Positions 896 through 22,932 of a DNA stretch of 64,000 nucleotides are shown here, piece after piece. Origin of the DNA: Acidimicrobiales bacterium (GTDB lineage: Bacteria > Actinomycetota > Acidimicrobiia > Acidimicrobiales > JAKAVM01); the NCBI GenBank assembly GCA_027452005.1, contig DAIDHF010000007.1, forward strand, positions 15,254-79,253, given 5' to 3'. The position numbers and the translations under genes are program-made. Within the stretch, counting starts at the first letter, position 1. The number at the start of each line of letters is the position of its first letter. The notes under the pieces are model-generated. The model was not told where the DNA came from. It was given only the letters and a program-made list of their open reading frames with translations, and did not search any database.

Positions 896-3825
896 CAATG
901 CAGCCTGGTACTTCTTCTATGCTTTCTGAGCCCGAATACTATCAGCTACTATCAGTATGCGCTTCTCTGATTGAACTATACGCTTCTGAATCCATAACGA
1001 TATGGAAGTTTTATTCAACCAACCGAGATCAGTCGGACGGACTGGTAACGCTCATCGGCGGACTAAACCTAGATGGCACACAAATCACTACTTCACCACA
1101 ATACCAGTCTATTCCGATTACAGAATTTCCTTCTATTGTGAGCTCAATGGACTTAGGTGGATCTATTGGGCCAGGCCTGTCTAGCCTCGGGTCTTTGGCA
1201 GAGGCGCGCTTCAAATTAGAAGCTGGCTTACAATCCCTGGAAGCTGAGCCGGTCCGAGCCAATGGTATGACAGTGGGGTTTATCCTAATTAGTCCTCCCA
1301 GGTTATTTGATACCGATAGATCGGCAATACTTCCTGCTATTGTGGCACCACTTCGTAAACTTTTGAGCCAAGAACTAGTCCCCGATATTCGGAACGACAC
1401 TTACTACTTGGCAAGCCTCGCTGCCCAATGTATTCGGACCGGGTCTTTACAACAATCACTTCAGACGATAGCAAAGTCCGTTTCTAATCGAATGCACTCT
1501 AAAGGTGGATCGATCTGGCTAGTTGATAGTTGGAGAGATTTATTTGACTCATCAACTTCACACATGCTGAAAGATATTCGCCATAGATTTATCATCAATG
1601 AAGTGCTCGACGAGCTAAGTTATAACCGAATTCGACCGGCCGTATTATACTCATCTGTACAGTCCCACTCTTCCACTGAACTAATTGATCTCACCTGTGA
1701 TGATTCAGGAAACATTAGCTGCCTTGAGAAATTCCTGAACTCTCAAGTACCCGTACTCGTAGAGAGCAAACTTCCGTTGGAGCCTGCGGTATGGGTGGAA
1801 ATAGTTGGTATATCAGTTACGTGCTACTCAGTGACTGTTGGCGTTATCGCCTTTGAACTTGGCGGCACTGGATCATTTGGTCCCGCCGACTACTACCTCC
1901 TTAGCGAGGTGTCTCACCTAATTGACTTGCTTATGAGGTATTTTTCATCGGCACAAGGTCTTTCAATGGCATTACAGCCGGAGACTAGCGTTAGTTGGGC
2001 CACCATTGAAAATATTGATCAAAGCGATCTGGGACTTCAAAGAATTGAACGTAATATCTGTGATGTACTTCAATGCAGCAGCGTTGAAGTTCTTCCGAAT
2101 GATTCAACCGTAGGCACCGGTCCTTACGCACTAAGCTGTGTTGTAGATAGCTTTAGGTCACGAACAGTGCACGTCACTAAAGATATGTGGGCGACCGAAG
2201 GGTTTTCGGATAATTCCGGAGAACTCGTTCGAGATGCTGACGGAAACTCCAGATTTATCTATTCCAATCCTCAGATCCAATCAGGACCTAAACCTATTAT
2301 GCGGGGCTGTGTAGCAGTACCAATTTTCAGCAGATCCGATACAAACTTTGTTATCTTGGCCGGAAACCCGACAAAACCACTTGAACTTAATTCATATCAA
2401 ATTGACTATCTTGATTTCGTTTCTGCCGATGGCTCCTTGGCTAATTTTATACTTGACCTTAGAAGACGTTCTTCGATTTCGGACAAACTTTTAGCGTCCG
2501 ATTTAATCTATGACCCGATAGCTGGCTTATCAAATACAGTACTATTCTATGACCGTCTTGAGCATTCAATGAGACATGCTGAACGTGAACAGTCACCCAT
2601 TGCTATGTTGCTCATAGATATCGTCAATTTCTCAGACATAAATTTTACCATGGGATATCGCTCTGGGAATGTTATCTTGAAGGAGCTTGCTGACCGACTG
2701 AAGACTACGCTGCGGGACTGCGACTACTTGTCGCGAGTTTCTGAAGACACTTTCGCGGTGGTGATGACAACCGGCGTCTCAGATGTTGGCTTAGATAAGG
2801 TAGTTACAAGATTAAAGGATGTATTGGGATTACCTTTTTATGTAGATAATCAAGCGATACTACTTTCGTTTTACCTAGCACCTTTTGGCTGGTTGGGAGG
2901 TCCGGTCGATTCGACAGAGTTTTTCAACATGTCCTATAGAGAGTTTCAAGCTACAAAGCTCTCGGTGATGGATTCTGAAAGCGTTAAACGTTTATCGGAC
3001 CAAGAAGATCAATTTGTTCCTCTTCAGCTAGCAATTTCGCATGAGGATATCCTCCAAGGGTTTTCGAACGGTCAATTTATACTCGAGTATCTTCCTCAAA
3101 TAGCACTCGCAAACAAAGACGTATCTACATTTGAAGCTTTGATCCGCTGGAATCATCCTCGTTTTGGTAAACTCTCCCCAGGACAGTTTTTGCACTATAT
3201 TCAAGGTAGCGAGCTGGAATGGGAGTTGACACGGTGGGTCATTGAAACAGCTGCAGACCAGTGTCTGGAGTGGTACTTAGGCGGCCTCACTACAAGTGTG
3301 TCAATCAATCTAACTAGCAATGACATATTGAATTATCCTCTTGCTGAAACCGTTGAAAGAGTTATAGAAATGACCCATTTGGCTCCTCGGCAGATTGTCC
3401 TTGAAATGTCAGAGGAGACCGTTAGAGATCCGGCTATTAGATCATCTGGTTCGTTAAATATACTTAGAACCTTAGGCGTTAGAGTTTCCATTGATAACTG
3501 TGGTAGTGGGCGGGTCGCCCCACTTTACTTAGCTAAAATGCCGGTAGATCAGATTAAACTAGACAACTCGTTACTTACTCTAGACGATCCCAAAGATATT
3601 GATCTCGTTCAAAAGATAGTCCAACTTGGTCACGAGTTTGGAGTTCTTATAGTGGCTGAAGCCATTGAGGAGAACCAAAGAATGGATAAAATGATTGAAC
3701 TTGGAGTCGATGAACTTCAAGGATTTCGAATCTCGGAACCCTTACCCACCGAAACCGTAATTGAGTGGACCCAAAACTATAGGAAACGAGCTGGAATACC
3801 GACGTCAATTGATTGGCGGGGCTAA
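892..3825 (+). CDS. Cytoplasmic c-di-GMP signalling protein: ~530-aa N-terminal sensory region + degenerate GGDEF + EAL domain
   Basis: EAL-domain motifs are present (FEALIRW, SINLT, LEMSEE, SIDNCGSG, IKLD, VAEAIEE, LQGF). In the preceding GGDEF-like domain GGDEF is replaced by SEDTF and GHxxGD by GYRSGN. I saw no TM segment. The start overlaps the upstream stop (ATGA). Confidence 0.8.
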   Translation: MTMQPGTSSMLSEPEYYQLLSVCASLIELYASESITIWKFYSTNRDQSDGLVTLIGGLNLDGTQITTSPQYQSIPITEFPSIVSSMDLGGSIGPGLSSLGSLAEARFKLEAGLQSLEAEPVRANGMTVGFILISPPRLFDTDRSAILPAIVAPLRKLLSQELVPDIRNDTYYLASLAAQCIRTGSLQQSLQTIAKSVSNRMHSKGGSIWLVDSWRDLFDSSTSHMLKDIRHRFIINEVLDELSYNRIRPAVLYSSVQSHSSTELIDLTCDDSGNISCLEKFLNSQVPVLVESKLPLEPAVWVEIVGISVTCYSVTVGVIAFELGGTGSFGPADYYLLSEVSHLIDLLMRYFSSAQGLSMALQPETSVSWATIENIDQSDLGLQRIERNICDVLQCSSVEVLPNDSTVGTGPYALSCVVDSFRSRTVHVTKDMWATEGFSDNSGELVRDADGNSRFIYSNPQIQSGPKPIMRGCVAVPIFSRSDTNFVILAGNPTKPLELNSYQIDYLDFVSADGSLANFILDLRRRSSISDKLLASDLIYDPIAGLSNTVLFYDRLEHSMRHAEREQSPIAMLLIDIVNFSDINFTMGYRSGNVILKELADRLKTTLRDCDYLSRVSEDTFAVVMTTGVSDVGLDKVVTRLKDVLGLPFYVDNQAILLSFYLAPFGWLGGPVDSTEFFNMSYREFQATKLSVMDSESVKRLSDQEDQFVPLQLAISHEDILQGFSNGQFILEYLPQIALANKDVSTFEALIRWNHPRFGKLSPGQFLHYIQGSELEWELTRWVIETAADQCLEWYLGGLTTSVSINLTSNDILNYPLAETVERVIEMTHLAPRQIVLEMSEETVRDPAIRSSGSLNILRTLGVRVSIDNCGSGRVAPLYLAKMPVDQIKLDNSLLTLDDPKDIDLVQKIVQLGHEFGVLIVAEAIEENQRMDKMIELGVDELQGFRISEPLPTETVIEWTQNYRKRAGIPTSIDWRG

Positions 3826-4453: not shown

Positions 4454-5470
4454 TTGCAAATCATCAAGTGCGGTCAAATGAAGCTCACGCCAATTGACAC
4501 CATTTGTCCGGCAAGGCGCCTAAACTTGAGCTTGATGCTAGCTGCAAACCTTGGCCCTGATCCAAACCCCCAATTCCAAGCCCGAACACATTTTCAGGCC
4601 ATCGTTTCAACCGCTCGACCAAAGCAGTGGATAAAGAATGTTCTTGTTTTTGCCGCTCCCGGAGCTGCCGGAGTTCTCTCGCATGGAACAAAACTTTCGC
4701 AAAGCGTTGCGACATTTTTGCTTTTTTGTGCCATGGCCTCGGGAGTATATTTTTTAAACGATTCTTTGGATGCGGCTGCCGACAGATTGCACCACACAAA
4801 ACGCTTTAGACCAGTCGCAAATGGAGAGCTTTCAGTTTCATTAGCAACGACAATTGGGGTAGTCCTAATTATCGTGTCCCTCCTAGCTGGAAGTATATTT
4901 GTAACACCAAGATTACTTTTCGTAATGGGTACTTACGTAGTTATCAATATTAGCTACTGCTTGTGGCTTAAGCATGAACCTGTAGTAGATATGGTCGCGG
5001 TAGCATCCGGATTTGCCCTTAGAGCTATCGCTGGTGGAATTGCGACCGGGGTTATCCTGTCTGACTGGTTTTTGATTGTTACCATGTCCGGCTCCTTATT
5101 TATGGTGGCAGGAAAACGACATGCCGAACATGTGGACCTTGGCGTAGAGCGCGCCAGCCATCGGTCTACACTTTCCCAGTACTCACTTGCCTATCTCAGA
5201 TACGTCAGGGCAGTTTCTTCAGGAGTTACCCTTACCGCTTATTGCCTGTGGGCTTTTGAGAAAGCCGCTCATCCCGGAGACCAGTCTATATTTTTTCGAC
5301 TTTCAATTGTACCGTTTTTGATTATTGTTTTGCGCTATGCACTTATTCTTGACACTGGCAAGGGAGGTGCTCCTGAGGAAATTGTCCTGGGCGACCGCCG
5401 CCTTCAAATTACCGGTCTTATTTGGTTGGCTGTATTTTTGCTTGGAGTATACTGGCCAGGACCGAGATGA
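4454..5470 (+). CDS. UbiA-family polyprenyl-phosphate 5-phosphoribosyltransferase (decaprenyl-phosphate phosphoribosyltransferase-like, Rv3806c type)
   Basis: Polytopic membrane protein with RPKQWIKNVLVF and the Asp-rich motif NDSLDAAADRLHHTKRFRPVANGEL. It sits directly upstream of dprE1/dprE2. The start is uncertain: TTG 4454 in the ORF track, with ATG 4478 or a later Met also possible. Confidence 0.8.
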   Translation: MQIIKCGQMKLTPIDTICPARRLNLSLMLAANLGPDPNPQFQARTHFQAIVSTARPKQWIKNVLVFAAPGAAGVLSHGTKLSQSVATFLLFCAMASGVYFLNDSLDAAADRLHHTKRFRPVANGELSVSLATTIGVVLIIVSLLAGSIFVTPRLLFVMGTYVVINISYCLWLKHEPVVDMVAVASGFALRAIAGGIATGVILSDWFLIVTMSGSLFMVAGKRHAEHVDLGVERASHRSTLSQYSLAYLRYVRAVSSGVTLTAYCLWAFEKAAHPGDQSIFFRLSIVPFLIIVLRYALILDTGKGGAPEEIVLGDRRLQITGLIWLAVFLLGVYWPGPR

Positions 5471-6879
5471 AAGAACAGATGCAAAAATTGTCAGGTTGGG
5501 GACGCACTCCCACGGCCATGAGTAACGTGGTTACTCCAGAAAGCCCTGAGGAGCTTCGATCAGCGTTACGGCACTTTGCCCCTGGAGCACTTAGAAGTGG
5601 AATGATTGCTCGAGGCTTGGGACGGAGTTACGGTGATGCAGCGCAATGCAGTGGGGGCACTGTATTTGACATGTCCGGGCAAGAGGTTTTGCTACGCGAA
5701 GACCTTGAGTCTGGAGTTATTTCAGTTTCATCTGGAATGTCTATAAATTCGTTACTTACCTATTTGATACCAAAAGGGTGGTTTTTACCCGTAACACCTG
5801 GTACAAGCTTTGTCACACTCGGAGGAGCCCTTGCGTGTGACGTCCATGGCAAAAATCACCACCAAGATGGTTCTATAGGGTCTCACGTACGCGAGTTCAA
5901 ACTTCTAACTCCGTCAGGTATCGTTAACGCAAAGCCATCCGACGATACTAGCGAGATTTTTTGGGCCACGGTTGGTGGACTCGGTCTTACCGGAATTGTC
6001 GAGCAAGTTGAGCTTTCCTTGCTGCCAATTGAATCAGACCAAATGCTTGTCACAACCCAGAGGGCCCAAAATCTAGATGAGCTAATTGAACTTATGAGTT
6101 CTACTGACAATCTCTATAGGTACTCGGTAGCTTGGATTGATTGTTTGGCCACTGGAGGGGCCTTGGGAAGGTCGGTCCTTACCCAAGCCAACCATGCCAC
6201 AAGTAGCGACATGCCCCGTAAGACCACTCGGGGAGTTTCAGGACTATTACACCAGTCCATAAGTGGATTTAGAAATTCCACATCAAAACAACTAAGGACC
6301 CGTATTTCCATACCTGTAACACCTCCGGTATCAACACTTAACCGCCTCTCTGTATCTGCATTCAACGAGGTATGGTACCGGAAGTCTCCTGCCAAATCGT
6401 GCACTGAACTAAGTCCTATTCCAAAGTTTTTTTATCCTTTAGACGCAATAGGACACTGGAACCGTCTTTATGGCAAGAATGGATTTATTCAATATCAGTT
6501 CGTAGTACCCTTTGGCTGTGAGCCAGAATTGCGTTCAATACTTGAAATTCTTAGCTCTTCAAGACTGTCTTCGTTTTTGGCAGTTCTAAAACGGTTTGGC
6601 CTTCCTAGTGGAGGCTATCTTTCCTTTCCTACTCCCGGTTGGACACTTGCTGTGGATATCGGTCTGGCCAATCCAAGAGTAGGTTCAATCCTAGATCAGC
6701 TGGATGAAATTGTAGTAGGCGCAAAAGGCAGGGTATATCTTGCTAAAGACTCCCGGCTTGATCCGAGGCATGTCGAAAGGATGTATCCGGAACTTGAAAA
6801 ATGGAGAGCCATCCGAGATCGGCTTGATCCAAAACGTCTTATGGCATCAGATCTGTCAAGGCGACTTGAGCTTATCTGA
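5467..6879 (+). CDS. dprE1: Decaprenylphosphoryl-beta-D-ribose 2'-oxidase (FAD-dependent)
   Basis: Motifs GWGRTP, GRSYGDAAQ, CDVHGKNHH and C-terminal YLAKDSRLD. ATG 5467 overlaps the upstream stop (ATGA), so the ORF-track start at 5422 is probably an over-extension. Confidence 0.85.
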   Translation: MKEQMQKLSGWGRTPTAMSNVVTPESPEELRSALRHFAPGALRSGMIARGLGRSYGDAAQCSGGTVFDMSGQEVLLREDLESGVISVSSGMSINSLLTYLIPKGWFLPVTPGTSFVTLGGALACDVHGKNHHQDGSIGSHVREFKLLTPSGIVNAKPSDDTSEIFWATVGGLGLTGIVEQVELSLLPIESDQMLVTTQRAQNLDELIELMSSTDNLYRYSVAWIDCLATGGALGRSVLTQANHATSSDMPRKTTRGVSGLLHQSISGFRNSTSKQLRTRISIPVTPPVSTLNRLSVSAFNEVWYRKSPAKSCTELSPIPKFFYPLDAIGHWNRLYGKNGFIQYQFVVPFGCEPELRSILEILSSSRLSSFLAVLKRFGLPSGGYLSFPTPGWTLAVDIGLANPRVGSILDQLDEIVVGAKGRVYLAKDSRLDPRHVERMYPELEKWRAIRDRLDPKRLMASDLSRRLELI

Positions 6880-6890
6880 AAGGAAGTGTA

Positions 6891-7706
6891 TTGAAGAATT
6901 CCCTCGGGCAACCCCAAAGCGTTCTGGTATTGGGAGGTTCATCTGATATCGCCAAAGCTACGGTGAAAAGGCTTATTGCCCAACGTTGTAGGCGTGTCCT
7001 ATTAGCGGGACGTCGACAAGATGAACTGGACTCGGCGGCAAATGAGATTTTATCGTCAATTGTTCCAACCCTTAACGCAAGTTCACCCGCACCCGAGATA
7101 TCTGGAAGTCTAACTAATAGTATTCCAGAGGTTTTTACCGGATATTTTGACGCTTTTGATCGGAAGAATCACCACAATATGATTGAGGAGTGTTTTTCCA
7201 AGCTTGGACAAATTGACCTTGTCGTCATTGCATTTGGGCTCCTCGGTGACGAGAATCTAGATGATCCTTCCAGCGTTTTGAACGTAATCGATACCAACTA
7301 TAGTGGAGTAGTTTCGTGCCTCTTACAGGTGGCTCACCAACTGAAAACTCAAGGCGGAGGTGAGATTGTTGTTCTATCATCGGTGGCGGGGGTACGAGTT
7401 CGAGAGTCAAATCTTGTCTACGGATCGTCTAAGGCAGCTATTGACAGCTTCTGTCAGGGATTTGCCGAAAAGATTGAAGGCGATGGCATTCGACTGCACA
7501 TTGTAAGACCCGGTTTTATACATACCAAAATGACCAGAGCTATGAAACCGTCACCACTATCACGACAACCCGAAGATGTGGCTAATGCAATCGTTCAGAC
7601 CCTAGGAACCGACAAGGTGATTATCTGGGTACCACCCGCAATCCGTCTGGTATTTATGATTCTCCAGGCATTACCGAGATCAATTTTTAGAAAGTTACCT
7701 ATATAA
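6891..7706 (+). CDS. dprE2: Decaprenylphospho-2'-keto-ribose reductase (SDR family)
   Basis: Rossmann loop LGGSSDIAKA and SDR catalytic YGSSKAA. It lies immediately downstream of dprE1. It has a TTG start. Confidence 0.8.
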   Translation: MKNSLGQPQSVLVLGGSSDIAKATVKRLIAQRCRRVLLAGRRQDELDSAANEILSSIVPTLNASSPAPEISGSLTNSIPEVFTGYFDAFDRKNHHNMIEECFSKLGQIDLVVIAFGLLGDENLDDPSSVLNVIDTNYSGVVSCLLQVAHQLKTQGGGEIVVLSSVAGVRVRESNLVYGSSKAAIDSFCQGFAEKIEGDGIRLHIVRPGFIHTKMTRAMKPSPLSRQPEDVANAIVQTLGTDKVIIWVPPAIRLVFMILQALPRSIFRKLPI

Positions 7707-7726
7707 GTACTTTGTACTGTCTTGAG

Positions 7727-8490
7727 CTAGTTGCCCACGCGCAATGCAACTGAGGCGATCGTTCCCGAATATCCAGGATCAGGCACTGAAAGATCCCCGT
7801 AAAGCGGGGCATCCCCGAATGCGTGGACCTCGCCGTTTGACGTAGCAATTTCATATCCAAGCCCATCTGGAGTGGTCACCATCGAGGTAGCAGTTGAATA
7901 AACGGCTTCCCCGGGGAGAGAGCCGTAGTATTGCGCGTCACCAAAAGCAAAGATCCCCCCGTCAGATGCCACTAGCCAATACCCCTGGCCGCTGCTCGTC
8001 GAACTCATCGAGATAATGGGTTCGTTCAAAGTCATGGCCCCAGTTGACCCATAGAACTGGGCATCGCCAAAGGCGAAGATTCCTCCGTCGGCAGCCACTA
8101 ACCAATATCCCTTCCCGTCAGGAGTTGAAGTCATTCCAACAATTGGCCGAGTTAGGCTTTTACCACCCATGGACCCATAGAACTGACCATCGCCAAAAGC
8201 AAAGATTCCTCCGTCGCTCGCAACTAACCAATATCCCTTGCCGTCAGGTGTTGACGTTATCGCAACTATAGGATTCAGTGAAAGTCCTTTCACGTTTCCG
8301 TAATCGATCGCATCCCCAAAGGCATACACGGAGCCATCGGTTCCGGCAAGCCAGTAACCGTTCATATCTAGCGTAGGTACGATTCCTACAATAGATCCAT
8401 TTATCGCTTTACCACTGAGTGATCCAAATGACCCGGCCTGACCAAAGGGAAATACGGAGCCCGTAGAGGAGACAAGCCAGTATCCATCAG
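7727..8490 (-). repeat. Coding tandem repeat with a 126-nt (42-aa) period, six units; best conserved units at ~7920-8297
   Basis: The block gacccatagaactg...gccaaa.gc.aagattcctccgtc recurs at 8046 and 8172, an offset of 126 nt. A related unit starts near 7920. The encoded repeats are listed under the CDS. Confidence 0.8.
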
Positions 8491-9808
8491 TGCCGCCACT
8501 TGGAGTTCCGGTAAAAGCAAAAAAATTGGAATTTAGTCCAAAATCAGCTTCAAAAGTAGTTCCACCTACTGTCAGACTTGAATTTGTACCCGTAATTTGG
8601 ACCGTTTTAGCCCTCCCTCCAAAATCCCCATTTCCATCCCGGGAAGTCACCGAGATCGCTACTAGGGTGCCAATTGAAGGCCAGGTAGCTTCGACCTGAG
8701 AAACGGGGATCGACGCCTGCCAGGTGTGATTTGGATTGCAGGCACTTGGCACACAAACCGAGTCGCCAGCGTCTGGTACCGCTGGAAAGCTCCCTCCCGA
8801 TGTATATCCACCCGTAGAGGCTGAAAATTCTGTGTTAGCAATTGCCCCTTGGCCATTTTCAAGAACCTCGCCTGCTGTGTCGGAAATTGCTTCATCTGTG
8901 AGAGGATTTTCAGAACTCAATCCACCGTAGACTTGACACTGTGTTGAATCGCAAATATCTGCGTATCCAAATTCACCTAAATCAGACAGTGCATATGAAC
9001 GTGCCGCCACTGCCTGAGCCTCAAGTTCTTGAAATCCACAGTTTTCCTGCTGTGGACCGCTATTGCCCAAAGTCCCCCAATAGGCCGGAGACTCTGAAGG
9101 GACGACCCCTCTCAAGTAGGATTCTATCGGCAAAACGTTAACGGTCCTAGACGAGCCCTGGTATAAGGCTGGTTCGATATCTCCTCGTAGGTATTCATTG
9201 GCTGGTAATTGACATAGTTGTAAAACTTGACTAGATGTTGCTGTTGTACTGGAACTCGAAGGAGAGATAAGTGGACTGGAGACTGTCTCTAGTGGTTTTG
9301 AGGCCCATGGTCCACCACATCCGGGGCCCTGATATACTGCCCATTGACTGTTGGGTGCCTCAACCAACATCACCGCTTGGTTGGCCGGAACTGTGTAGCT
9401 GTCAACCGTGAAGGGGCTCTGGGACGTCACAATGGTTGTAAGACCGTCCTCACCAGTTATAACGACCCTAATATTTGAGTTTCCCACAATCTTTGGAGAA
9501 GTTCCGCCGTAGTAGTGAGATAAAATCCATGAGTAACTTTCGCCGTCAAGAGCATATCCCAATGCCCCCCACTGACCCATCCCATATCCATGTCCCCAAC
9601 CATGCCCAATAACTCCGACTTGACTGTTGGGATAAACCGCGTGAGGTATGACTTCTCCTACAGACCGACCAACAATCCCGAAGGTGGTTATCAAGAATGC
9701 AAACAACCCTGCGACAAACTGACCAAGTAATCTCTGATTACCTAGTCTCACAAGTGCTCTATCGAGATACTTATGCCTGTAGTTATTCTTTATTCCATGA
9801 TTGGCCAT
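7727..9808 (-). CDS. Membrane-anchored SpoIID/LytB-domain protein with a C-terminal six-unit 42-aa repeat module
   Basis: N-terminal TM segment ([17 protein letters not shown]). SpoIID-type motifs [23 protein letters not shown] and [11 protein letters not shown]. The C-terminus has 6 repeats of the [22 protein letters not shown] type. Confidence 0.75.
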   Translation of the reverse strand: [693 protein letters not shown]

Positions 9809-9823
9809 TTAGATATAACTCTA

Positions 9824-11050
9824 CTACTTGGCGACTGAGACTACTTTCATGGCCACCGGGAAAGCCACCACTCCCACGTCCCTGCCCGGATTTACCACCT
9901 CAAAATGGTCGACCTGCTCTCTCCATGCATACACAGACCCACTCTCGACCCCTCGTACCTCAAAGGTCATCTTATAGACTCCGTCCAGGAGGGGAACAGT
10001 TGCAAAATCAAATACTATCTCACCAGCTCCGTCTAAAATGCCAACGTCAACCCCGTGGCCCTGCGAGGTTGCAGAGAAAAACAGCTCATTGCCAGAATAG
10101 ATCGATACTCCAAATTGAGCATCGTTAATCGCTCTATTCGCATTATAGTGCAAACGAACCCGCATGGGATCTCCTGAAAGAATATGCCCTGACCCGTTGC
10201 TCTCTATCACTACCTCTTCAATGCTAATGTCACCTGTACCTAGGGTTTCCTTCCCTTGATCTACCAAATTGTTTTCAAGCACCTCTCCGAGCTGCGGTGA
10301 ATTGATACCTGAACTTGCCATCATATATTCACGGAATACCCGAATTGCTTCTCCGGGGGCTCCAAATGCCACCACCTTTCCGTGGTCGAGTACGAAGGCT
10401 TTGTCGCATATCTGCCGTACAGAGTCAGCTGCATGTGTAACGAACACGATGGTCTTGCCAGCTTTTTGAAACTGGTTGATCCTGTCAATGCATTTTCGTT
10501 GAAAGTTCTCGTCCCCAACAGCCAATACCTCGTCAATCAGCAAGATGTCAGGGTCAACGTTTACGGCTACAGCGAAACCAAGACGCGCCTGCATGCCCGA
10601 GCTGTAAAATTTCACCTGGTTGTCTATGAACTGTGAAAGCTCAGAAAACTCGACAATCTCTTCGAACTTCGAGTCAATTTGGCGTTTGCTCAATCCCAGT
10701 AAAGAAGCATTTAGATAGATATTGTCTCTTCCTGAAAGGTCGGGATGAAATCCAGCTCCAAGTTCCAAAAGTGCGGCGACTGATCCTCGCAAACATACCT
10801 TTCCGGTAGTCGGCTGTAAAATGCCCGCCATGCACTTTAGCAGGGTAGACTTTCCAGAACCATTGTGCCCTAATAACCCAACGGTTTCCCCAGGCTCAAC
10901 TTGAATATTTACATCCCTAAGAGCCCAAAATTCTTCGTAAGATGATCTCATCCCACGGATAAGTTTTTCCTTAATTGACGTATGCTTCTCTTTGTAAAGC
11001 TTAAAATGCTTAGATAGATCTACAACCTCTAAAGAATATGAGGTCATCAA
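9824..11050 (-). CDS. Polysaccharide/O-antigen-type ABC exporter ATPase (Wzt/TagH-like) with a C-terminal beta-rich extension
   Basis: Walker A GHNGSGKST, signature YSSGMQARL, Walker B ILLIDEVLAVGD and H-loop FVTHA. There are ~155 extra C-terminal residues (coding 9824-10290) that resemble the Wzt C-terminal glycan-binding domain in length and beta-strand pattern. Confidence 0.85.
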   Translation of the reverse strand: MMTSYSLEVVDLSKHFKLYKEKHTSIKEKLIRGMRSSYEEFWALRDVNIQVEPGETVGLLGHNGSGKSTLLKCMAGILQPTTGKVCLRGSVAALLELGAGFHPDLSGRDNIYLNASLLGLSKRQIDSKFEEIVEFSELSQFIDNQVKFYSSGMQARLGFAVAVNVDPDILLIDEVLAVGDENFQRKCIDRINQFQKAGKTIVFVTHAADSVRQICDKAFVLDHGKVVAFGAPGEAIRVFREYMMASSGINSPQLGEVLENNLVDQGKETLGTGDISIEEVVIESNGSGHILSGDPMRVRLHYNANRAINDAQFGVSIYSGNELFFSATSQGHGVDVGILDGAGEIVFDFATVPLLDGVYKMTFEVRGVESGSVYAWREQVDHFEVVNPGRDVGVVAFPVAMKVVSVAK

Positions 11051-11995
11051 CTACAGCTCTTCCGCAAAGTTGCCCTCTAGCTTTCCAAAAAGCTTCAACG
11101 ATAGTACGAAGAGTATCGACGACACCAATATGACTATACCGAAATCCTTGAGATACCAACTCAGATCAAAATTAGCCAAATAATGCGTGTGAGGTGCAGG
11201 TGGCGGGACCTTCATTCCTGCAGTTCGAGCAACTCCAGCTAGTGGGTTGCCATAGAAGGCTCTTTGCATTAGCAAGATAATTGGCGCAATTGGATCGGCC
11301 AAATAAATCCATGTCAAATGATGATGAGTCAAGCCACTAGAGGCAACCTGCCAGGTGTATACAGTTGGCGTAGCCCAGAACCATGCCATTAAGAGAACCT
11401 CAAGGATGTGATAGGTATCTCTGAAATATACGTTTACCGCTGAAAAGAAAATCGAAAGAGTAGACGTGAAGATTATAAGGACCACTAGCGCAAGAGGAAC
11501 TAAATATACGTAAGGCGTCTGTGGTACTAAATGAAAAAGAGCTAGAACAACCGTCAAGATAATCGCTTGAAAGAAGAAAAATACAGCGGCTGTTCCCATT
11601 GAACTCAAAACCAGAATTTCACGCGAAAAAGATACTTTTTTAATGAGACCACTGTTGTTGACAACCGATGCGCAAGCTGTAAGGACCGAATTGAAAAAAA
11701 AGTTCCAAATAACCAGACCACACATTAAATAAATTGCAAAATCCGGAACGGGGTTATGAAGGGCAACAGAGAATACAAAATCGTAAATTGCTAAGGTCAA
11801 AGCTGGATTGAGAAAAGACCATGCAAACCCAAGTGCAGATCCCTTGTACTTTACCGACAGGTCCCTGCTGACCATAAACACTAAAAGTTCACGTTCAGCC
11901 CACATACGTTGAAGTCGAGAAATAACCGAAACTTCAGGCGTTAGGATTCTAACTGGTTTCCCCAGGGGTTTTATCCCATCATCAACAGCGCTCAT
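11051..11995 (-). CDS. ABC-2 type polysaccharide exporter permease (Wzm/TagG-like)
   Basis: 314 aa with ~6 hydrophobic helices and an N-terminal motif VSRDLSVKYKGSALGFAWSFLNP typical of ABC-2 permeases. Its stop abuts the start of the downstream ATPase gene. Confidence 0.85.
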   Translation of the reverse strand: MSAVDDGIKPLGKPVRILTPEVSVISRLQRMWAERELLVFMVSRDLSVKYKGSALGFAWSFLNPALTLAIYDFVFSVALHNPVPDFAIYLMCGLVIWNFFFNSVLTACASVVNNSGLIKKVSFSREILVLSSMGTAAVFFFFQAIILTVVLALFHLVPQTPYVYLVPLALVVLIIFTSTLSIFFSAVNVYFRDTYHILEVLLMAWFWATPTVYTWQVASSGLTHHHLTWIYLADPIAPIILLMQRAFYGNPLAGVARTAGMKVPPPAPHTHYLANFDLSWYLKDFGIVILVSSILFVLSLKLFGKLEGNFAEEL

Positions 11996-12056
11996 CTTTG
12001 AAACACTCTATCTAATTCACTACCTAAAGACGGATCTGAGTGAGCAATATACCTGG

Positions 12057-12830
12057 TCACAGCCTTATTCGCGATCCCAAGTTTGGTGCGTCTCCGAATG
12101 GATAGATTCCACCGGCGCTATCAACCATCCAGTAACCAAGTCCGTCCGGAGTCATTGCAAGTCCGACTATGGGCTTTGAAATCTGCTTGTTCCCTAGTGA
12201 CCCATAAAACTGTGCATCTCCAAATGCAAATATGCCGCCATCTGAGGCAACGAACCAGTATCCTTTGCCATCAGATGTTGCCGTCATACCAACGATCGGC
12301 TTGTTTAGGTTCAGAGATCCGGTTGACCCATAAAACTGTGCATCTCCAAATGCAAATATGCCGCCATCTGAGGCAACAAGCCAGTATCCTTTGCCATCAG
12401 ATGTTGCCGTCATCCCAACGACTGGCTTATTGAGTGGCTTACCCCCCATTGATCCATAGAACTTGGCCGAACCAAATGCAAATATTCCTCCATCGGACGC
12501 GACTAACCAGTATCCAAAATTATTAGCCGCTTCCCCCGCCCCAACTATTGGTTTAGTCAATATGGTTGAATTTGACCCTCCGGCAGGTAAACCAGGATTA
12601 ATCTGGCCAGACGAACCGAAATAAGAAGCGCTACCATAGGTAAAGATAGACCCATCAGCACCTACAAGCACGTATCCAGTGCTACTAGAGTCAACTGCAA
12701 ACGCTGAAATCGGCGCGGATAGTGTCAAATTGCTTGCGGAGCCGTATAAAGTTGCGTCCCCGAATGGGTATACATTTCCTGCGCTATCAACCTCCCAATA
12801 ACCTTTTCCATCTGAGGTTGGGGCCATTGC
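12057..12830 (-). repeat. Coding tandem repeat with a 126-nt (42-aa) period, six units; two adjacent units share a near-identical 102-nt block
   Basis: By my alignment, 12199-12300 and 12325-12426 are identical at 97 of 102 nt. The plus-strand shadow ORF 12083-12433 shows the duplication as a repeated LTHKTVHLQMQICRHLRQ. Confidence 0.85.
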
Positions 12831-14348
12831 AACCACCGCCGGTACTGTCGGGGCTAGCCCAGAAAGCTGTGGATCATGGTGAAACATGGGCCATGCACCC
12901 ACCTCGTTCACCGATGCCCCATTCGAAGAGGGAAGCTCAAAGTGATAGATAACACCTTGATTGGAAGAGTTATAACCTGCCACGGTAATTCCAATAGAAC
13001 CATTGGGATCGTCCGTAATCAATGGGGAGTTCTGAAAGCCAATAAAACTGGTAGCACCTATTACCCCTAAGTCTGAGCCAGTCTTGCCGTCAAAAATATC
13101 TATACCAAGCGTAGTTGGAACTAATAGGTCTTGATACCCCGATCCAGAAAGATCCGCTGTGACTGCCGATCCAATAACTGCGCCAGTCGTTGGGGCCTGC
13201 CAAATGGTACTCCCGTTGTCACCGTCCAGTACCCAGATAGACCCAGAACCTGACCCAATATTTGTCCCTTCGATAACTTGAAGTTGACCGTTACCGAGAA
13301 CATCTGCCAAAGCTGGGCTCGAATTGGTTGCTCCATCAAGTTGTACGCTCCAATCTAGTGAACAGTTACTGGCATTTACAGATATGAGCCTATTTGTATC
13401 ACTCACCCCCTGATAGTACATTCCTGTTCCAGCAATAATTGAATAAGTATTTTGGCTACCCACTATTCCAACGGCTGGCGAGGATTGAACGACCTGATTA
13501 GTGTTGTACTGACAGATTAATCCACCGTTGGGTGTTGGTTGATTTAGGTTGCCGGTTGGTGCCAGGACTCTTATGTGACCACCATTTTGATAAGTTGTGT
13601 TATAAGAAAGTCCTGCAGTGGAGTCTCCCCCTTCAATTATTTGATTCTGCCCATTTCCTAGGACATCTCCAATTGCAGGTGTAGTAAAATTAGAATCAGC
13701 CTCATACCAAGGAAATCCAGGAAGAATCGATCCGCTCTGCGCATTCATTGCAAATTCATTTTCACCCATGGATCCACTGATAACATCGGTCGAGCCCTGG
13801 AGATTGCCGACGGTCATTGAGGACTGGACCCCATTTTGCGTCGTTGGATCAGTGGATGGATTGTATTGAGGGACATACCATTGGCTAGACCCTGTCGGGG
13901 TGATTGCCTGATAACCTCCTACAGTCGGGTTAGCAGAATTGCCTACGCCAACGAATACACTGTCCAAGTTGCCTGGATTAATAGGAGCAACCGATGGAGT
14001 AGCATCAATAGCACCACCTGCGTGAAATGGCCAACCTGACACCGCGGATCCATCTGAAAGATGAAAAGCATACACATTCCCCGCCCTGTCGCCAATGACT
14101 ACAGACGGCTTCCCGTCCAAGTTGGCAACATTGGGCGATGAAAGAGCAACTGGGTAACCAGAGTCATCTAACGTTTGCGACCAGATGGTTTGAATTTGGC
14201 TCACTGCAAATACGTGTGGTCGGACAAACAGCTTCTGATAAATACTAGGCCCGGCAAAAGCATTCGCGAACGATACGTCCTGAATAACAGTCACAATGCA
14301 GGCAAAACTAGCTAGAATAACTCCCAACCTTCGAGTAGTGTGCTTCAT
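12057..14348 (-). CDS. Secreted beta-propeller protein (FG-GAP/PQQ-like repeats) with the same C-terminal six-unit 42-aa repeat module
   Basis: Signal-peptide-like N-terminus ([25 protein letters not shown]). Repeated [28 protein letters not shown] and [14 protein letters not shown] motifs. The C-terminus has 6 repeats of the [22 protein letters not shown] type. Confidence 0.7.
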   Translation of the reverse strand: [763 protein letters not shown]

Positions 14349-15526
14349 CTTCCTACCTTCACAATCCGTTCAGCGAACTCACAATAGCGTTCAATAAGTA
14401 TCTCCCAATTGTATCTGGAAATAGCGTACTCTCGCCCGTTACCAGCAAGCTCATCCCGCAAACCCCGATTGGTCAATATTGCATGAAGCTTTACGCAAAA
14501 CTCCTTGAAATTTTCAAACCATAAGCCCCCTCTTGAGGCTATGCAGTGTTCAAGGGTTACCTCACAGCTTCCATTTACGAGTACGGGAATTGAACTTTTC
14601 CAGGCTTCAAATATCACCAATGAGAACGACTCGTAGGCTGAGGGCGAAATAAGAAGCTCAGCACCGGACAGTAGATCCCATTTATCGGACTCGGTAACTG
14701 GACCGATGCAGACGATATCCTTGTGGCTAGGAAGTTTTACTAGGTCAGGTCCGACAAACAATAGCTTGCACTCTGAAGGAAAAGCCTTTTTGTACTCGAT
14801 AAAAAACTCAGCCAAGAACACCGAACCCTTCATTTCATCTATGCGTCCAAGGGAGACAATATAGGGATCTGTTCCAAGTTGAAACTTGTCCCGAATAATA
14901 CTTCCAGTGCAATGTGGGTCACTAGTACCCAATCCCAATGTAATTTGAGGCTTTTGAGCAATTTGAATAACCCGTTGGGTAAGTTTCCGTTCAGCCGAGG
15001 CATGATAGACAAACCCGTCAAAACTTTTGAACGTCTCGTCAAATACCTTTAGGTAAAACGCGGGCTCATCGTGCACGGCTGGGTGTAGGATCTTTCTGCC
15101 CTTTACCCTTTTGACACCTTCAACCGTCGGGTGAAACAAATACGGGTAAAATGCAACTACTTCACTATCGCACCTGGCAATTTCTTCAAGTAATCCTACG
15201 CTTATTGGCCCTTGAAGCTCTACCCAGTCCTTGGACTCGCCTAACGTAAGACGAAGTGGATCTACCTTGACCTTGGCATCCAATTCAAAAAACTTTTCTT
15301 CTCGACCTCGGTCTACAACAAATCTCTTGACCAACACCCCATTTAGTTCACTCATACCTGCGTTTAGTTTGTTTTCCCAGGTTATGTGGTCTAAGGCACA
15401 CGTTGTAATTACCTCAACTTCCCAGTTCTTTTGAGCAACAAGGTGTTCAGCAATCATACGCGCCGCTGATTCTGCACCTCCCAAGATTTCAGTGCCATAG
15501 CGTGGGACGACAAAGGACATCTTCAT
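14345..15526 (-). CDS. Glycosyltransferase, GT4 (GT-B fold)
   Basis: 393 aa with N-terminal GGAESAARMIAEHL and a C-terminal EX7E-type motif YESFSLVIFEAW. It overlaps both neighbouring genes by 4 nt. Confidence 0.8.
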   Translation of the reverse strand: MKMSFVVPRYGTEILGGAESAARMIAEHLVAQKNWEVEVITTCALDHITWENKLNAGMSELNGVLVKRFVVDRGREEKFFELDAKVKVDPLRLTLGESKDWVELQGPISVGLLEEIARCDSEVVAFYPYLFHPTVEGVKRVKGRKILHPAVHDEPAFYLKVFDETFKSFDGFVYHASAERKLTQRVIQIAQKPQITLGLGTSDPHCTGSIIRDKFQLGTDPYIVSLGRIDEMKGSVFLAEFFIEYKKAFPSECKLLFVGPDLVKLPSHKDIVCIGPVTESDKWDLLSGAELLISPSAYESFSLVIFEAWKSSIPVLVNGSCEVTLEHCIASRGGLWFENFKEFCVKLHAILTNRGLRDELAGNGREYAISRYNWEILIERYCEFAERIVKVGR

Positions 15527-16644
15527 GCCTGTTCAATACCATCTGTGCTAAGCCTATACTCATTGAGTATTCTAGTTGCTACTACTGAAAACCGGTCTTG
15601 TGAATCATCCGTGCAACTCATCACCTGTGCGCTAAATCCGATCTTGTTAAAGAGATACACCCAAGTCTCTGGGTGAATGGGTGCAGAGGAACTCAAGTCT
15701 TTCACAGGGCTTTGAACTTTCTCTCTCCAGGCCTGGTTCGAAATCGACGAAATAATACAAAATCCATTTTCGCCAATAATCCGATCAACATTACCTATAA
15801 ACGTTGCAATCTCAATTGGCCCGAAAATTTCAACGCAGTTCTCAACTATAAGTCCGACGATAGAAGCGTCCCCAACAGAACTCAGGTGCACCAAACAAGA
15901 ATCAACCCTTAGATCCCAAAGGTCAATTTCACTTTGTGAGAAAGAATCTAGACTGCGTACTACACCATAAGAATTCGGGCAGAAGCCATGCAATTTTGAA
16001 ATCGACTCTCGGTCTTGTAACCCAATATGTAATACCCGACCCCAATCTCCACACAAATAACGAACATTTTGAAAGTGTTGACTAGACATTCTCTCATGTG
16101 AAACATCGTCAAAGATCCTCGGCCATGAGGTTTTACCGAGCAACGGAAAAGGAACATCGATGTCAATTCTGTTTTGAATCTGACCAGGGCTACGATTATT
16201 CGATTGCCGATTACTTGCAAGATACTGAATTGATCTAGCGGTTGTTGAAGTAAAATCATTCAACTGATTGCCAACATAGCCGACATACCAGCTCATCAAC
16301 TTTGCAAGTAGTCCTTTCCCCATTGTCCCAGCCGGAATCTGCGAGGCAGTGGGCGCTCGCGTGTCAATATTCGCACTTGCTATAACCTGGGTTACCAAGG
16401 AATCTAGATGCTCATCGACTACAGAACTATCATCACCTCTGTTGGAATAAAATACAAGTAGTTCCTCCAATGTGACTGCACCAGCCTGAATATTCCTTCG
16501 AGAACCCACGCTTGCTTGCTGCATATAAATCTTATTCAGGTACGTTTCATTCTCTGCCAAAAGGTCACCAACATTATCGATTTCCTTTTCAGCCCGATAA
16601 ATGCTCCCCTTTAGTTTTTGTTGAAACAGTTCATCCTTACGCAT
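15523..16644 (-). CDS. Hypothetical protein X1: helical N-terminal region + class I methyltransferase-like fold with degenerate Gly loop
   Basis: 373 aa. It shares the segment LLAKLMSWYVGYVGNQLNDF with X3 (ISKVVAWYMNHVGGQLKDM). C-terminal strand pattern: VLHIGLQD ... VVRSLD ... IVGLIVENCVEIF ... IIGENGFCIISS. Confidence 0.5.
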   Translation of the reverse strand: MRKDELFQQKLKGSIYRAEKEIDNVGDLLAENETYLNKIYMQQASVGSRRNIQAGAVTLEELLVFYSNRGDDSSVVDEHLDSLVTQVIASANIDTRAPTASQIPAGTMGKGLLAKLMSWYVGYVGNQLNDFTSTTARSIQYLASNRQSNNRSPGQIQNRIDIDVPFPLLGKTSWPRIFDDVSHERMSSQHFQNVRYLCGDWGRVLHIGLQDRESISKLHGFCPNSYGVVRSLDSFSQSEIDLWDLRVDSCLVHLSSVGDASIVGLIVENCVEIFGPIEIATFIGNVDRIIGENGFCIISSISNQAWREKVQSPVKDLSSSAPIHPETWVYLFNKIGFSAQVMSCTDDSQDRFSVVATRILNEYRLSTDGIEQA

Positions 16645-16652
16645 AGCCTTGT

Positions 16653-17744
16653 TTACTTTCTCAACGTATCGTCTATTAACTTAATGTACTGGGCCCCAGC
16701 TGAGTCGAGATTGAGTTGAGATAGTCGTTCGTAGTTACTTTCGATTACACTTTTCCATTCTGCACGCTCGCTTATTTCAATAATCTTAGCCGCCAGCTTT
16801 TTAGGATCATGTGCTTCAACAGTGTTGTGGTTCGACCCCAACACCTCTGGGATTGCACCTTCAGCAACTCCAACTATGGGTAGTCCGTGACTCATGGCCT
16901 CTACCAGGGGAAAGCAATACCCTTCGTGTCTAGAACTAACAACCAAGAGATCACTAGTGCAATATAGGTTACTCAGTTCGTTATCTCCAATGCTTCCCAC
17001 AAACACAACTTTGTCCTGTAAACCCAAGTTACGAACAAGTACTCTGAGGGCATTGAGATAAGGTGATATTGAGTTCTTCCCAACAATGGTCAGCTCAGCA
17101 CCAAGACCTGTCATCTCATTGAAATAAAATAGTGCGCCAATTGCGTCTTCAAGTGATTTATTGGGAGACAATCGACCTACGCTCAACCACTTCAGAGGGT
17201 AGTAATTGCTTTCAATTTTCCCACCACTCTTTCGCTCCATGGAAGAACTTCCCACTAATGGTGGGAGTACCCGGCACTCGCGAAACCCAAATTGGTTTAG
17301 TACGCTTTCATTAAACCTCGATACCGTAAGTCCCATTTCGGCAATTGAGGCAAGTTGTCGAAGCTCTATTTGCGCACGCCGTTGGATTTTGGCAACAACT
17401 CGATTCCAAGAATCAAAATATTCGGGTGGAGTTATATTGTGGAAGTTTACCCAAACTCTATACTGGCTCTGTAATAGCCAAGCAACCATATCTGACGATG
17501 TTGCAAACTGATAGATAATTAAACCAGCATTTTTGCGCACATCTTCAAAATCGCTATATAGCTTAGTCTTGTCGACTGTATCATTATCGAAGTGCTCTAC
17601 AAAGATTTCTGAATCATAGCCATTTGAGCGCAAGGCATCTTGGAGTCTCAAAGTATGATTTCCCACGGCGTCATGGGCATGTAGCATTGGAACAAATTGG
17701 TCGATAGAAAACTGGCCCATGATTTTAAAGTACTTTTTTCCCAA
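16653..17744 (-). CDS. Glycosyltransferase, GT4
   Basis: 363 aa with EX7E region SSRHEGYCFPLVEAMSHGLPIV. The N-terminus (FVPMLHAHDAVGNHTLRLQDAL) is paralogous to the 19797-20900 and 18665-19789 products. Confidence 0.8.
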   Translation of the reverse strand: MGKKYFKIMGQFSIDQFVPMLHAHDAVGNHTLRLQDALRSNGYDSEIFVEHFDNDTVDKTKLYSDFEDVRKNAGLIIYQFATSSDMVAWLLQSQYRVWVNFHNITPPEYFDSWNRVVAKIQRRAQIELRQLASIAEMGLTVSRFNESVLNQFGFRECRVLPPLVGSSSMERKSGGKIESNYYPLKWLSVGRLSPNKSLEDAIGALFYFNEMTGLGAELTIVGKNSISPYLNALRVLVRNLGLQDKVVFVGSIGDNELSNLYCTSDLLVVSSRHEGYCFPLVEAMSHGLPIVGVAEGAIPEVLGSNHNTVEAHDPKKLAAKIIEISERAEWKSVIESNYERLSQLNLDSAGAQYIKLIDDTLRK

Positions 17745-18612
17745 AAATTACAGATGATCCAGCAGTAACTGAGAAACCAACTGCATTAAGTATCGACGCG
17801 GTAACTTGATTATCCTCTGCGCTCTCGACCACTACCATCCCCCCAGAAGGCAACCTTGCGTAACAGTGGTCCATAAACTCTAATCGCCTTGCTCTAGTTA
17901 GCCGGAACAGGAATTTACCAATTATCACCGCTCTCATTGGTACCTTGTCAGTTAGTACTAACAAGTTATAAAAGGGGTCACCAACTAGAGCGATATGCCC
18001 CTTTTGAGTTCGTTCAAAGGCCTGTGCTGGATTAAAGTCGATAAAATAGACACTTCCTGCAACTTCCGCCAATACTTGGTCAAGTTGCTCACCCGGTGAA
18101 TCTACTATCAGAATGTTTACACCACTATCAGCTTCAGAAACTTCCTGAAAGAGTACTTCGCAAAACTTGTCAATCCATTCAGGCAACAGTGAGGCCAAAG
18201 TATCTTCGGATGTGCTGCTATAGATATCTTCTTGAATAACCAATTTCTCAACTCTTACTTCGTTGTCAAATTTCGACTCAAGCAGGCGTAAGCGCTGATC
18301 AACTAAGTCTAGACCTTGACGTAATGACAATAATATCTTTTCAACTGACAAGTGAGTGTTTTCAAGTGGAGAGTGGATTTTACTTGATGCGACAAGTCTG
18401 TTGACGACCCTCTCTATATTTGCGTGATACCACCCCCTAAGATTTCTTTGCTTGATCAAGTTGGAGTCAGAATGTTGAACTTGAGCTAATTCCAATTGCT
18501 CAGCATATGTAGCTAGGTCATCAAGTAATAGCCTAAGTTCATGTCGATTTTGGTGATCTATCCAATACTGATAAAACCAGTCTCGCATTGAGTTTTCAAA
18601 GTCATCCATCAA
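17725..18612 (-). CDS. Hypothetical protein X2: helical N-terminal region + class I methyltransferase-like fold with degenerate Gly loop
   Basis: 295 aa with helical, heptad-like N-terminal segments (LSVEKILLSLRQGLDLVDQRLRLLESKF). C-terminal pattern: ILIVDSPGE ... VYFIDFNP ... AVIIGKFLFRL ... RLPSGGMVVVES. Confidence 0.5.
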   Translation of the reverse strand: MMDDFENSMRDWFYQYWIDHQNRHELRLLLDDLATYAEQLELAQVQHSDSNLIKQRNLRGWYHANIERVVNRLVASSKIHSPLENTHLSVEKILLSLRQGLDLVDQRLRLLESKFDNEVRVEKLVIQEDIYSSTSEDTLASLLPEWIDKFCEVLFQEVSEADSGVNILIVDSPGEQLDQVLAEVAGSVYFIDFNPAQAFERTQKGHIALVGDPFYNLLVLTDKVPMRAVIIGKFLFRLTRARRLEFMDHCYARLPSGGMVVVESAEDNQVTASILNAVGFSVTAGSSVIFGKKVL

Positions 18613-18664
18613 AATTTATCCAAGAAACCTAAAAGCCAAAACACCCAAAATGCCTCCGAGGTAG

Positions 18665-19789: not shown

Positions 19790-19796
19790 GCAAGTA

Positions 19797-21924: not shown

Positions 21925-21962
21925 GTAATTTTGGAACTAGTTTTCATCCACCTCTTCAGGTC

Positions 21963-22646: not shown

Positions 22647-22707
22647 GTATACCTCGCTGCCGGTCTAGGTGGAAACTTCAGGGATTTTATGCGAGTATTT
22701 TACCCTT

Positions 22708-22791: not shown

Positions 22792-22932
22792 CCGCTGGGG
22801 ACATGCACTCCCAGGGTGGGTTTTACTAGCAGATATGTACCTCTAGCTGGAGCCAACTATAAATTCGGCGTCCTCAACGGGTCCTCGGTGATAGTATTGC
22901 GATTTACGGAATCGGTCAATTAGGAGGAGTGC

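Follow-up and report, generated by a model that had tools for sequence, protein, structure and literature searches.

The locus and its two repeat-bearing genes

We analysed a window of 64,000 nucleotides (nt), the whole stretch of DNA considered here, from an Acidimicrobiales bacterium (contig DAIDHF010000007.1). This work concerns a repeat module, with units of about 42 amino acids (aa), that forms the C-terminal part of two proteins encoded in the window, open reading frame (ORF) A and ORF B, and its likely role at the cell surface. An earlier examination of the letters without database searches (the sequence-only reading) had reported that both proteins end in six such repeats and that their genes flank the Wzm and Wzt genes. 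Both statements hold: all twelve units score 32-88 bits with a hidden Markov model (HMM) of the unit, and Pfam confirms the two exporter genes between A and B. The four genes are:

7727..9808, minus strand: ORF A, peptidoglycan enzyme of the SpoIID/LytB type, 693 aa, with a membrane anchor and the six-unit module at its C-terminus (ORF list, Pfam/NCBIfam, unit HMM)
9824..11050, minus strand: Wzt, ABC ATPase with a C-terminal Wzt_C carbohydrate-binding domain (PF00005, 2.5e-22; PF14524, 5.9e-14)
11051..11995, minus strand: Wzm, ABC-2 type permease, ABC2_membrane (PF01061, 2e-11)
12057..14348, minus strand: ORF B, secreted protein with a predicted PQQ/BamB-like eight-bladed propeller and a C-terminal six-unit module, 763 aa (Pfam, unit HMM, AF2, Foldseek)

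Within ORF A the following parts were delimited, where AF2 stands for AlphaFold2:

9668..9730, minus strand: hydrophobic N-terminal anchor, aa ~27-47 (read from the translation, no predictor)
8528..9628, minus strand: SpoIID/LytB catalytic region, aa 61-427 (PF08486, 1.1e-19; TIGR02669, 3.5e-39)
7730..8518, minus strand: module A as a whole, six 42-aa units and a closing C-terminal strand (unit-HMM scores 32-88 bits)
8396-8518, 8273-8395 and 8147-8272, minus strand: module A units at aa 431-471, 472-512 and 513-554 (unit HMM)
8021-8146, 7895-8020 and 7769-7894, minus strand: module A units at aa 555-596, 597-638 and 639-680 (unit HMM)
7730-7768, minus strand: C-terminal tail strand of module A, aa 681-693 (final strand of the AF2 model, model residues 257-263)

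The catalytic region of ORF A scores far above the cut-offs of the SpoIID/LytB models (PF08486, 71.3 bits against 23; TIGR02669, 135.4 against 83.3). It contains the motif GHGxGHGxGMxQxGA at aa 68-82 and a 14-residue motif at aa 226-239, which we take, from B. subtilis SpoIID, to be the catalytic-Glu motif. An exact-sequence look-up of ORF A returned no record. The first motif aligns to the C-terminal end of SpoIID models (positions 291-333 of TIGR02870), yet it precedes the main core (aa 217-427), an order that in sequence looks like a circular permutation. The motif also stands before the core in 77 of 120 homologs, and in two GTDB orthologs (L001 and L006) it appears to follow the core.

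For ORF B, the parts are:

14256..14348, minus strand: signal-peptide-like N-terminus, aa 1-31 (read from the translation, no predictor)
12849..14204, minus strand: predicted N-terminal propeller, aa 49-500 (sub-threshold Pfam, AF2, Foldseek)
12060..12839, minus strand: module B as a whole, six units (unit-HMM scores 38-84 bits)
12714-12839 and 12588-12713, minus strand: module B units at aa 504-545 and 546-587 (unit HMM)
12552-12587, minus strand: 12-aa insertion between units 2 and 3, aa 588-599, the sole break in the 42-aa period across A and B
12426-12551 and 12300-12425, minus strand: module B units at aa 600-641 and 642-683 (unit HMM)
12174-12299 and 12060-12173, minus strand: module B units at aa 684-725 and 726-763 (unit HMM)

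The N-terminal domain of ORF B matches three Pfam families, all below their curated cut-offs (PQQ_2, 3.1e-05, with 24.2 bits against 27.6; Beta-prop_ACSF4, 3.6e-08; FG-GAP_3, 0.0023). Its AF2 model, made from a 41-sequence alignment, reached a predicted local distance difference test (pLDDT) score of 86.1 and a predicted template modelling (pTM) score of 0.88. The best Foldseek matches of this model in the PDB were BamB and quinoprotein alcohol dehydrogenases (E about 1e-12, TM-score at most 0.76 when normalised to the target) as well as tetrathionate hydrolase. The domain is thus predicted to be like the eight-bladed propellers of the PQQ/BamB type.

The best-matching units of the two proteins had been described as alike in protein, with 33 of 42 residues shared, and different in DNA at synonymous sites. 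We counted 34 of 42 identical residues in the best pair, A4/B4; different codons are used for 22 of these 34, and the nucleotide identity is 89/126. When the A and B units were compared by the NG86 method, synonymous divergence (dS) was saturated and nonsynonymous divergence (dN) was 0.10-0.35. Exact DNA matches between the two modules extend to 14 nt at most. Since synonymous codons differ, dS is saturated and exact matches are short, the similarity is kept at the protein level, and the repeat units of A and B are under purifying selection. A recent DNA exchange between the two genes is ruled out by the same three observations. Within gene B, units 4 and 5 (12198-12428) have 231 nt in common at 95% identity, with a period of 126 nt and an exact match of 54 nt, a sign that part of the gene was recently duplicated internally or underwent gene conversion; nothing comparable to this tandem repeat was found in gene A. 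No further repeat-bearing ORF is present in the window. Two antisense ORFs, 9697-10128 (plus strand) and 12083-12433 (plus strand), overlap Wzt/A and the repeat region of B, respectively. Both are probably not genes, and the second is repetitive as a mirror of the units.

Fold and identity of the module

The AF2 model of the module A array (pLDDT 88.7, pTM 0.86) has three DSSP strands per unit and a terminal strand placed to close the ring. Foldseek searches with the module model returned only beta-propellers (probability 1.0), and the matches in the PDB and BFVD were generic WD40 or RCC1-like propellers with TM-scores of about 0.5-0.65. The array is therefore predicted to be a closed six-bladed beta-propeller, in which the six blades come from the units and their copy number and the ring from the structure prediction.

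Copy number was examined with a unit HMM that was built from homologs and applied to 99 cellular and 67 viral carriers. Exactly six units were found in 87 of the 99 cellular carriers, and twelve in one. The viral carriers have two units (26 proteins), three units (34), five (one), six (four) or twelve (two). Almost all of these counts are divisors or multiples of six, and the few lower unit counts could be truncated ORFs or diverged units. The counts fit a closed six-bladed ring, provided that the short viral forms are trimeric or dimeric, and the two- and three-unit phage proteins would thus form trimeric and dimeric propellers, respectively. The lectins RSL and BambL have two blades per chain and form a trimer. 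The viral proteins, whose oligomerisation we infer, would likewise reach six blades as a trimer or dimer. Together, the model, the Foldseek matches and the copy number in cellular carriers support the six-bladed propeller that the sequence-only reading had thought probable.

The best Foldseek matches of the module are WD40-type scaffolds, and the viral two- and three-unit forms imply oligomerisation. Both would suit a propeller that serves as a protein-protein or self-assembly platform, for an S-layer or a shared envelope partner, and that does not bind glycan. We consider such a platform very improbable, as the matches from Foldseek reflect the fold in general (TM about 0.6, 12-18% identity) and as the C-termini of phage endolysins and the exchange with CWB2, described below, point to wall binding.

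No model of Pfam or NCBIfam covers the module. Searches of PDB sequences, with the module alone or with a 30-sequence profile, found no relative except for a chance match to eL24. Full-text literature searches revealed no description of the repeat motif or of a wall-binding propeller of this family in Acidimicrobiia. The module is thus not a named family, in agreement with the sequence-only reading. In addition, the Pfam models for CWB2, SLH, LysM, SH3b, choline-binding, LGFP and GW repeats did not match module A or module B even at E<=1.

The resemblance to RCC1 and BLIP-II that had been seen in the repeats lies in a local pattern, D-G-x-hydrophobic-aromatic-x-aromatic-G ... G. RCC1 and BLIP-II are seven-bladed. 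As family membership the resemblance did not hold up when RCC1 and RCC1_2 (PF00415/PF13540) were tried: RCC1_2 matched one of 30 members, module A itself, where the scores summed to 25.6 bits and none of the individual stretches was significant.

Ribosomal protein L24e (PF01246) was also rejected, with a module score of 13.6 bits (E 0.083) against a cut-off of 27 bits. It is the commonest weak match of the family, found at E<=1 in 14 of 30 members with a best E of 3.2e-06. The best PDB match of the module is likewise an eL24 chain (E 0.46), over a G-x-G...A-x-D-G-x-aromatic-x-F patch. Many carriers are labelled 'ribosomal protein L24E' by JGI (e.g. P0011, P0017, P0278 and P0352). This label is spurious because it stems from a short chance motif and the matches fall on secreted enzymes. 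As judged from the sequence comparisons, the L24E naming is a systematic annotation error across the family.

In an exhaustive HMMER search against 1.84 billion cluster representatives, 19,413 proteins passed E<=1e-3 and 9,311 passed E<=1e-30; the approximately 19,400 family members are clusters at 50% identity. The best 80 module loci, with one genome per GTDB species, are almost all from Acidimicrobiia, including Acidithrix ferrooxidans and Acidiferrimicrobium sp. IK. This range places the window, too, on a chromosome of an Acidimicrobiia member. Two module loci belong to metagenome-assembled genomes (MAGs) labelled 'Thermoplasmata archaeon' (L034, which bears a 12-unit protein) and 'Candidatus Angelobacter' (L065); these are probably binning contaminants from Acidimicrobiia. 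The family consensus unit, derived from 424 distinct units, has 42 residues, of which more than 20 positions are conserved to at least 80%. The blades are near-identical to one another and to the family consensus across many genomes.

Evidence for a proposed role in wall anchoring

The module is fused to a wide variety of secreted enzymes that are unrelated to one another. Among the best 120 homologs, Pfam detected CHAP, NlpC/P60, M23, CAP, PG_binding_1, YkuD, VanY, beta-lactamase-like, GH43, GDSL lipase and TIG domains. When the non-module parts of the 99 GTDB carriers were scanned, we found TIG (8), SpoIID (7), He_PIG (4), pro-kumamolisin (4), PQQ_2 (4), GH43 (3), NlpC/P60 (3), S8 (2), GH16 (2), Amidase_2 (2) and others. 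Also among the partners are Amidase_2/3, sedolisin, subtilase, GH99, other Ig-like domains, and esterases or lipases. The module is C-terminal in 62 of the 99 carriers, N-terminal in 18 and internal in 18, and a strongly hydrophobic N-terminal stretch is present in 67 of 98 carriers according to a crude index. In Firmicutes, SLH and CWB2 anchors are likewise found on wall enzymes, on proteases and glycosidases, and on Ig-like proteins (PMC4973711 for CWB2).

Some of these partners, namely GH16, GH43, GH99 and the esterases or lipases, would also be expected if the propeller were a carbohydrate-binding module that steers secreted hydrolases to environmental polysaccharide as food. For the family this explanation is hardly credible, as it leaves the SpoIID, L,D-transpeptidase, amidase and CHAP partners, the phage endolysins and the CWB2 swap unexplained.

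The repeat is used by phages as well, and 93 confirmed stretches in IMG/VR encode it. The 67 viral repeat ORFs are mostly 220-330 aa long and have their repeats at the C-terminus. In 46 of the 67, an N-terminal Amidase_2 domain precedes the C-terminal repeats, which is the standard layout of an endolysin. The viral relatives thus have the layout of phage endolysins with a wall-binding domain, and from sequence alone the repeats would be the part that binds the wall. In a siphovirus segment (L092), tape-measure, Dit and minor-tail genes are directly followed by the carrier gene, and in the GenBank phage GX15bay the module is found in a 1304-aa 'GH25' protein encoded directly after the minor tail protein. 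Large viral carriers of about 1,000-1,300 aa with 5-12 units were observed in L084 (4978-8046), L085 (4927-8061), L090, L124 and L162 (2055-5969), and two viral proteins of about 1,000 aa bear 12 units. The large carriers may be tail-associated lysins or receptor-binding proteins rather than endolysins.

CWB2 (PF04122) is known mainly from Firmicutes. In close homologs of A and B it can take the place of the module. The best 120 homologs of the B propeller comprise 110 proteins with the module, six with three CWB2 repeats instead and four short ones. One of the six, P0270, has 68% identity to residues 49-505 of B; the match breaks off right at the module boundary, and from residue 512 three CWB2 repeats follow (E about 1e-38). 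Of 120 homologs of the SpoIID part of A, 118 carry the module and one (P0435) carries CWB2 in its place; NCBI names this protein 'cell wall-binding repeat-containing protein [Acidimicrobiales]'. The CWB2 proteins P0270-P0276 come from metagenome contigs. Their loci L163 and L166 are transposase-rich, and a second CWB2 protein is encoded nearby in L166.

In several respects the module resembles known anchors. Like CWB2, it is appended to many unrelated secreted enzymes and occupies the same position in close homologs of A and B, whereas it has no sequence similarity to CWB2, which consists of three repeats of about 90 aa, is not a propeller and has a known ligand, the polysaccharide PSII. Like SLH, it would be a non-covalent anchor in which tandem repeats, always the same in number, build a single pseudo-symmetric unit, and it is found on proteases, glycosidases, amidases and adhesin-like proteins; SLH domains differ in fold and repeat number, and their Pfam model does not match the module. 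SLH domains bind pyruvylated secondary cell wall polysaccharide. In C. difficile, CWB2 anchors surface proteins to PSII, and the genes of the CWB2 proteins directly adjoin the PSII synthesis locus (PMC4973711). CWB2 has also been reused as the wall-binding domain of phage endolysins (PMC9045149).

A further comparison is offered by actinobacterial six-bladed propeller lectins that bind wall teichuronic acids, among which UmbA4 reads a variable wall polymer with pocket positions that diverge between blades (bioRxiv 10.1101/2025.04.24.650519). The C-terminal propeller of Streptomyces UmbA4 is, like the module, actinobacterial and six-bladed, and it recognises a Gram-positive wall glycopolymer between or on its blades. 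The module, in contrast, has no sequence relation to any PDB chain, and its blades are near-identical whereas the UmbA pockets vary. Moreover, UmbA targets the walls of other species, whereas the module appears to retain the cell's own enzymes.

Fold, copy number, use by phages, the CWB2 swap, the partners, export and purifying selection all point to the same function. We propose that the closed six-bladed propeller binds the cell wall non-covalently and so retains exported proteins of Acidimicrobiia at the surface, a reading to which we assign a probability of about 0.7. The wall-targeting role that the repeats had been suggested to play is supported most directly by the phage Amidase_2 proteins with C-terminal repeats, by the swap with CWB2 and by the range of fusion partners. 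In ORF A the module would hold the membrane-anchored SpoIID/LytB-type peptidoglycan enzyme on the wall, and in ORF B it would hold the secreted, putative eight-bladed PQQ/BamB-like propeller there. The most fitting description of the repeats is that of a new family, unnamed and very large, whose members are wall anchors with a six-bladed propeller in Acidimicrobiia and their phages; structurally new, they belong to a functional kind that is well known.

Several points weigh against this proposal. Wall binding, multivalency and the identity of the ligand are inferred. About one third of the carriers have no clear hydrophobic N-terminus, which is probably an artefact of crude ORF starts. The viral contigs carry no host assignment. 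The domain swap speaks for an equivalent position in the protein, not for an identical ligand. Finally, some partners act on external substrates (GH16, GH43, GH99 and proteases), so that binding of environmental polymers is possible for some members.

The Gram-positive surface owes its organisation to non-covalent anchors, among them SLH, CWB2, LysM and choline-binding repeats, which also serve as handles for surface display and for the engineering of endolysins. Soils, freshwater, oceans and acid mine sites all harbour abundant Acidimicrobiia, yet descriptions of how their envelope is built appear to be scarce. The module is a candidate for the principal anchor of this class. A definition of the family would correct thousands of annotations and mark the exported proteome of the class, and repeat-bearing endolysins would serve as a host marker for Acidimicrobiia phages. 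In addition, the two-, three- and six-unit forms of a symmetric propeller represent a natural experiment in repeat-protein assembly.

The glycan operon and candidate ligands

Genes A and B belong to a longer gene string, and a further group of genes is convergent with A. The additional members are:

14345-15526, 16653-17744 and 19797-20900, minus strand: three GT4 glycosyltransferases upstream of B (Pfam scans)
18665-19789, minus strand: weak GT4-like ORF (lenient Pfam scan)
15523-16644, 17725-18612 and 20893-21924, minus strand: three operon ORFs without a family match (Pfam scans)
4454..7706, plus strand: UbiA-family prenyl/phosphoribosyl transferase, DprE1-like FAD oxidoreductase and DprE2-like short-chain reductase, convergent with A (family matches)

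PF01061, PF00005 and PF14524 all exceed their Pfam cut-offs, and GT4 genes adjoin, as expected of a Wzm/Wzt glycan exporter. ORF A is the last gene of a minus-strand string that runs from 21924 to 7727, in which genes overlap or are spaced by at most about 60 nt. A, Wzt, Wzm, B and seven upstream genes make up this 11-gene string of GT4 synthesis and Wzm/Wzt export. Because a promoter and terminator scan of 7000-23000 gave the same counts as shuffled sequence, the reading as a single operon is based only on spacing and conserved order. When the four unannotated operon ORFs were scanned leniently with Pfam, the weak GT4 match for 18665-19789 was the only usable one. A faint hint of an O-methyltransferase was observed in 17725-18612, and the equivalent cluster in L081 holds a Methyltransf_11-like gene. 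As a general rule, ABC-dependent glycan export with a Wzt_C domain would call for a chain-terminating modifier.

The gene order around A and B is conserved. Every ortholog of A or B with enough flanking sequence adjoins GT4, Wzm/Wzt or UbiA-DprE1-DprE2 genes (L003, L006, L039, L066, L073, L081, L164/L165 and L167). In L164, L165 and L167 the genes again stand precisely as B-Wzm-Wzt-A, the upstream GT4 gene order is the same in L164 and L167, and UbiA, DprE1 and DprE2 lie beside the SpoIID-module gene in L003, L164, L165 and L167. Of these, L167 is a metagenome contig with a 99% identical copy of B (P0266), and L164/L165 are from an NCBI MAG with a 78% ortholog; both have the same gene order. 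The two genes would thus be part of a conserved 11-gene operon that builds a wall glycan through GT4 enzymes and exports it through Wzm/Wzt. The conserved synteny fits a role of A and B in wall remodelling linked to polymer insertion. By analogy with CWB2 and PSII in C. difficile, it is also compatible with the exported polymer as the ligand.

The module as such does not follow this pattern. A co-occurrence of module and Wzm as a general rule, to be expected if the module recognises the polymer of the neighbouring operon, was not borne out: a Wzm gene lies within 10 kb of the module in 3 of the 80 loci, and all three are orthologs of A or B. It follows that the module is not tied to glycan loci and that the linkage belongs to the A and B genes.

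As the six blades are near-identical in sequence, we propose that the probable ligand is a wall glycan, repeating and invariant, which the module would contact at several equivalent sites. Candidates are the backbone of peptidoglycan and a conserved secondary polysaccharide of the wall, and the near-identity of the blades in sequence argues against a variable, strain-specific ligand.

Two more specific ligands were considered. The first is peptidoglycan itself, its glycan strand or stem peptide, which would be bound in the manner of LysM or SH3b, with the glycan operon as a mere neighbour. The extreme conservation of the units across the class and across the six blades fits such an invariant ligand, as does the heavy use of the module by CHAP, NlpC/P60, M23, amidase, SpoIID, YkuD and VanY proteins and by phage Amidase_2 enzymes. 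This ligand does not explain, though, why A and B consistently lie within the glycan operon, and what takes the place of the module in the swaps is CWB2, which binds a polysaccharide, rather than LysM or PG_binding_1. Peptidoglycan therefore is, in our estimate, a serious possibility that falls short of even odds.

The second is the polysaccharide of the adjacent GT4/Wzm/Wzt operon, possibly one that depends on decaprenyl-phospho-arabinose (DPA), for which the module would be a lectin, with A and B acting on or binding the polymer. This is what the lasting linkage of the A and B orthologs to GT4, Wzm, Wzt and UbiA-DprE1-DprE2 would suggest. It also agrees with the interchange of the module with CWB2, which binds a secondary wall polysaccharide and whose genes adjoin the PSII locus (PMC4973711), and with the binding of wall teichuronic acids by actinobacterial six-bladed lectins (bioRxiv 10.1101/2025.04.24.650519). 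We nevertheless hold it to be rather unlikely: the three loci with a nearby Wzm are all orthologs of A or B, the blades are near-identical whereas the pockets of UmbA4 diverge, and the CWB2-bearing paralogs of B lie outside glycan loci.

A bolder version would combine several of these elements. The module would then be the main means of non-covalent surface display in Acidimicrobiia and a six-site lectin for the GT4/Wzm/Wzt(+DPA) polymer, and the phages of this class would have acquired pieces of two or three blades that reconstitute the propeller by trimerisation or dimerisation and target endolysins and tail proteins. We regard this combination as speculative and improbable.

The UbiA, DprE1-like and DprE2-like genes together resemble the pathway to DPA. 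Their position beside Wzm/Wzt resembles the layout of the mycobacterial arabinogalactan cluster and, by this analogy, suggests a wall polymer that contains arabinofuranose in an Acidimicrobiia. General family scans of the window revealed no GT-C arabinosyltransferase. The remaining genes of the window are chromosomal housekeeping genes (ClpP, AlaRS, AspRS, HisRS, RelA, SecDF, Tgt and RuvB). A minus-strand ORF of 2,287 aa (56340-63203) has no Pfam match even at E<=1. The glycan region is bracketed by genes for a GGDEF-EAL protein (892-3825) and a HAMP-GGDEF protein (22933-24846), and these flanks are kept in L164 and L167. The envelope locus may thus be under the control of c-di-GMP.

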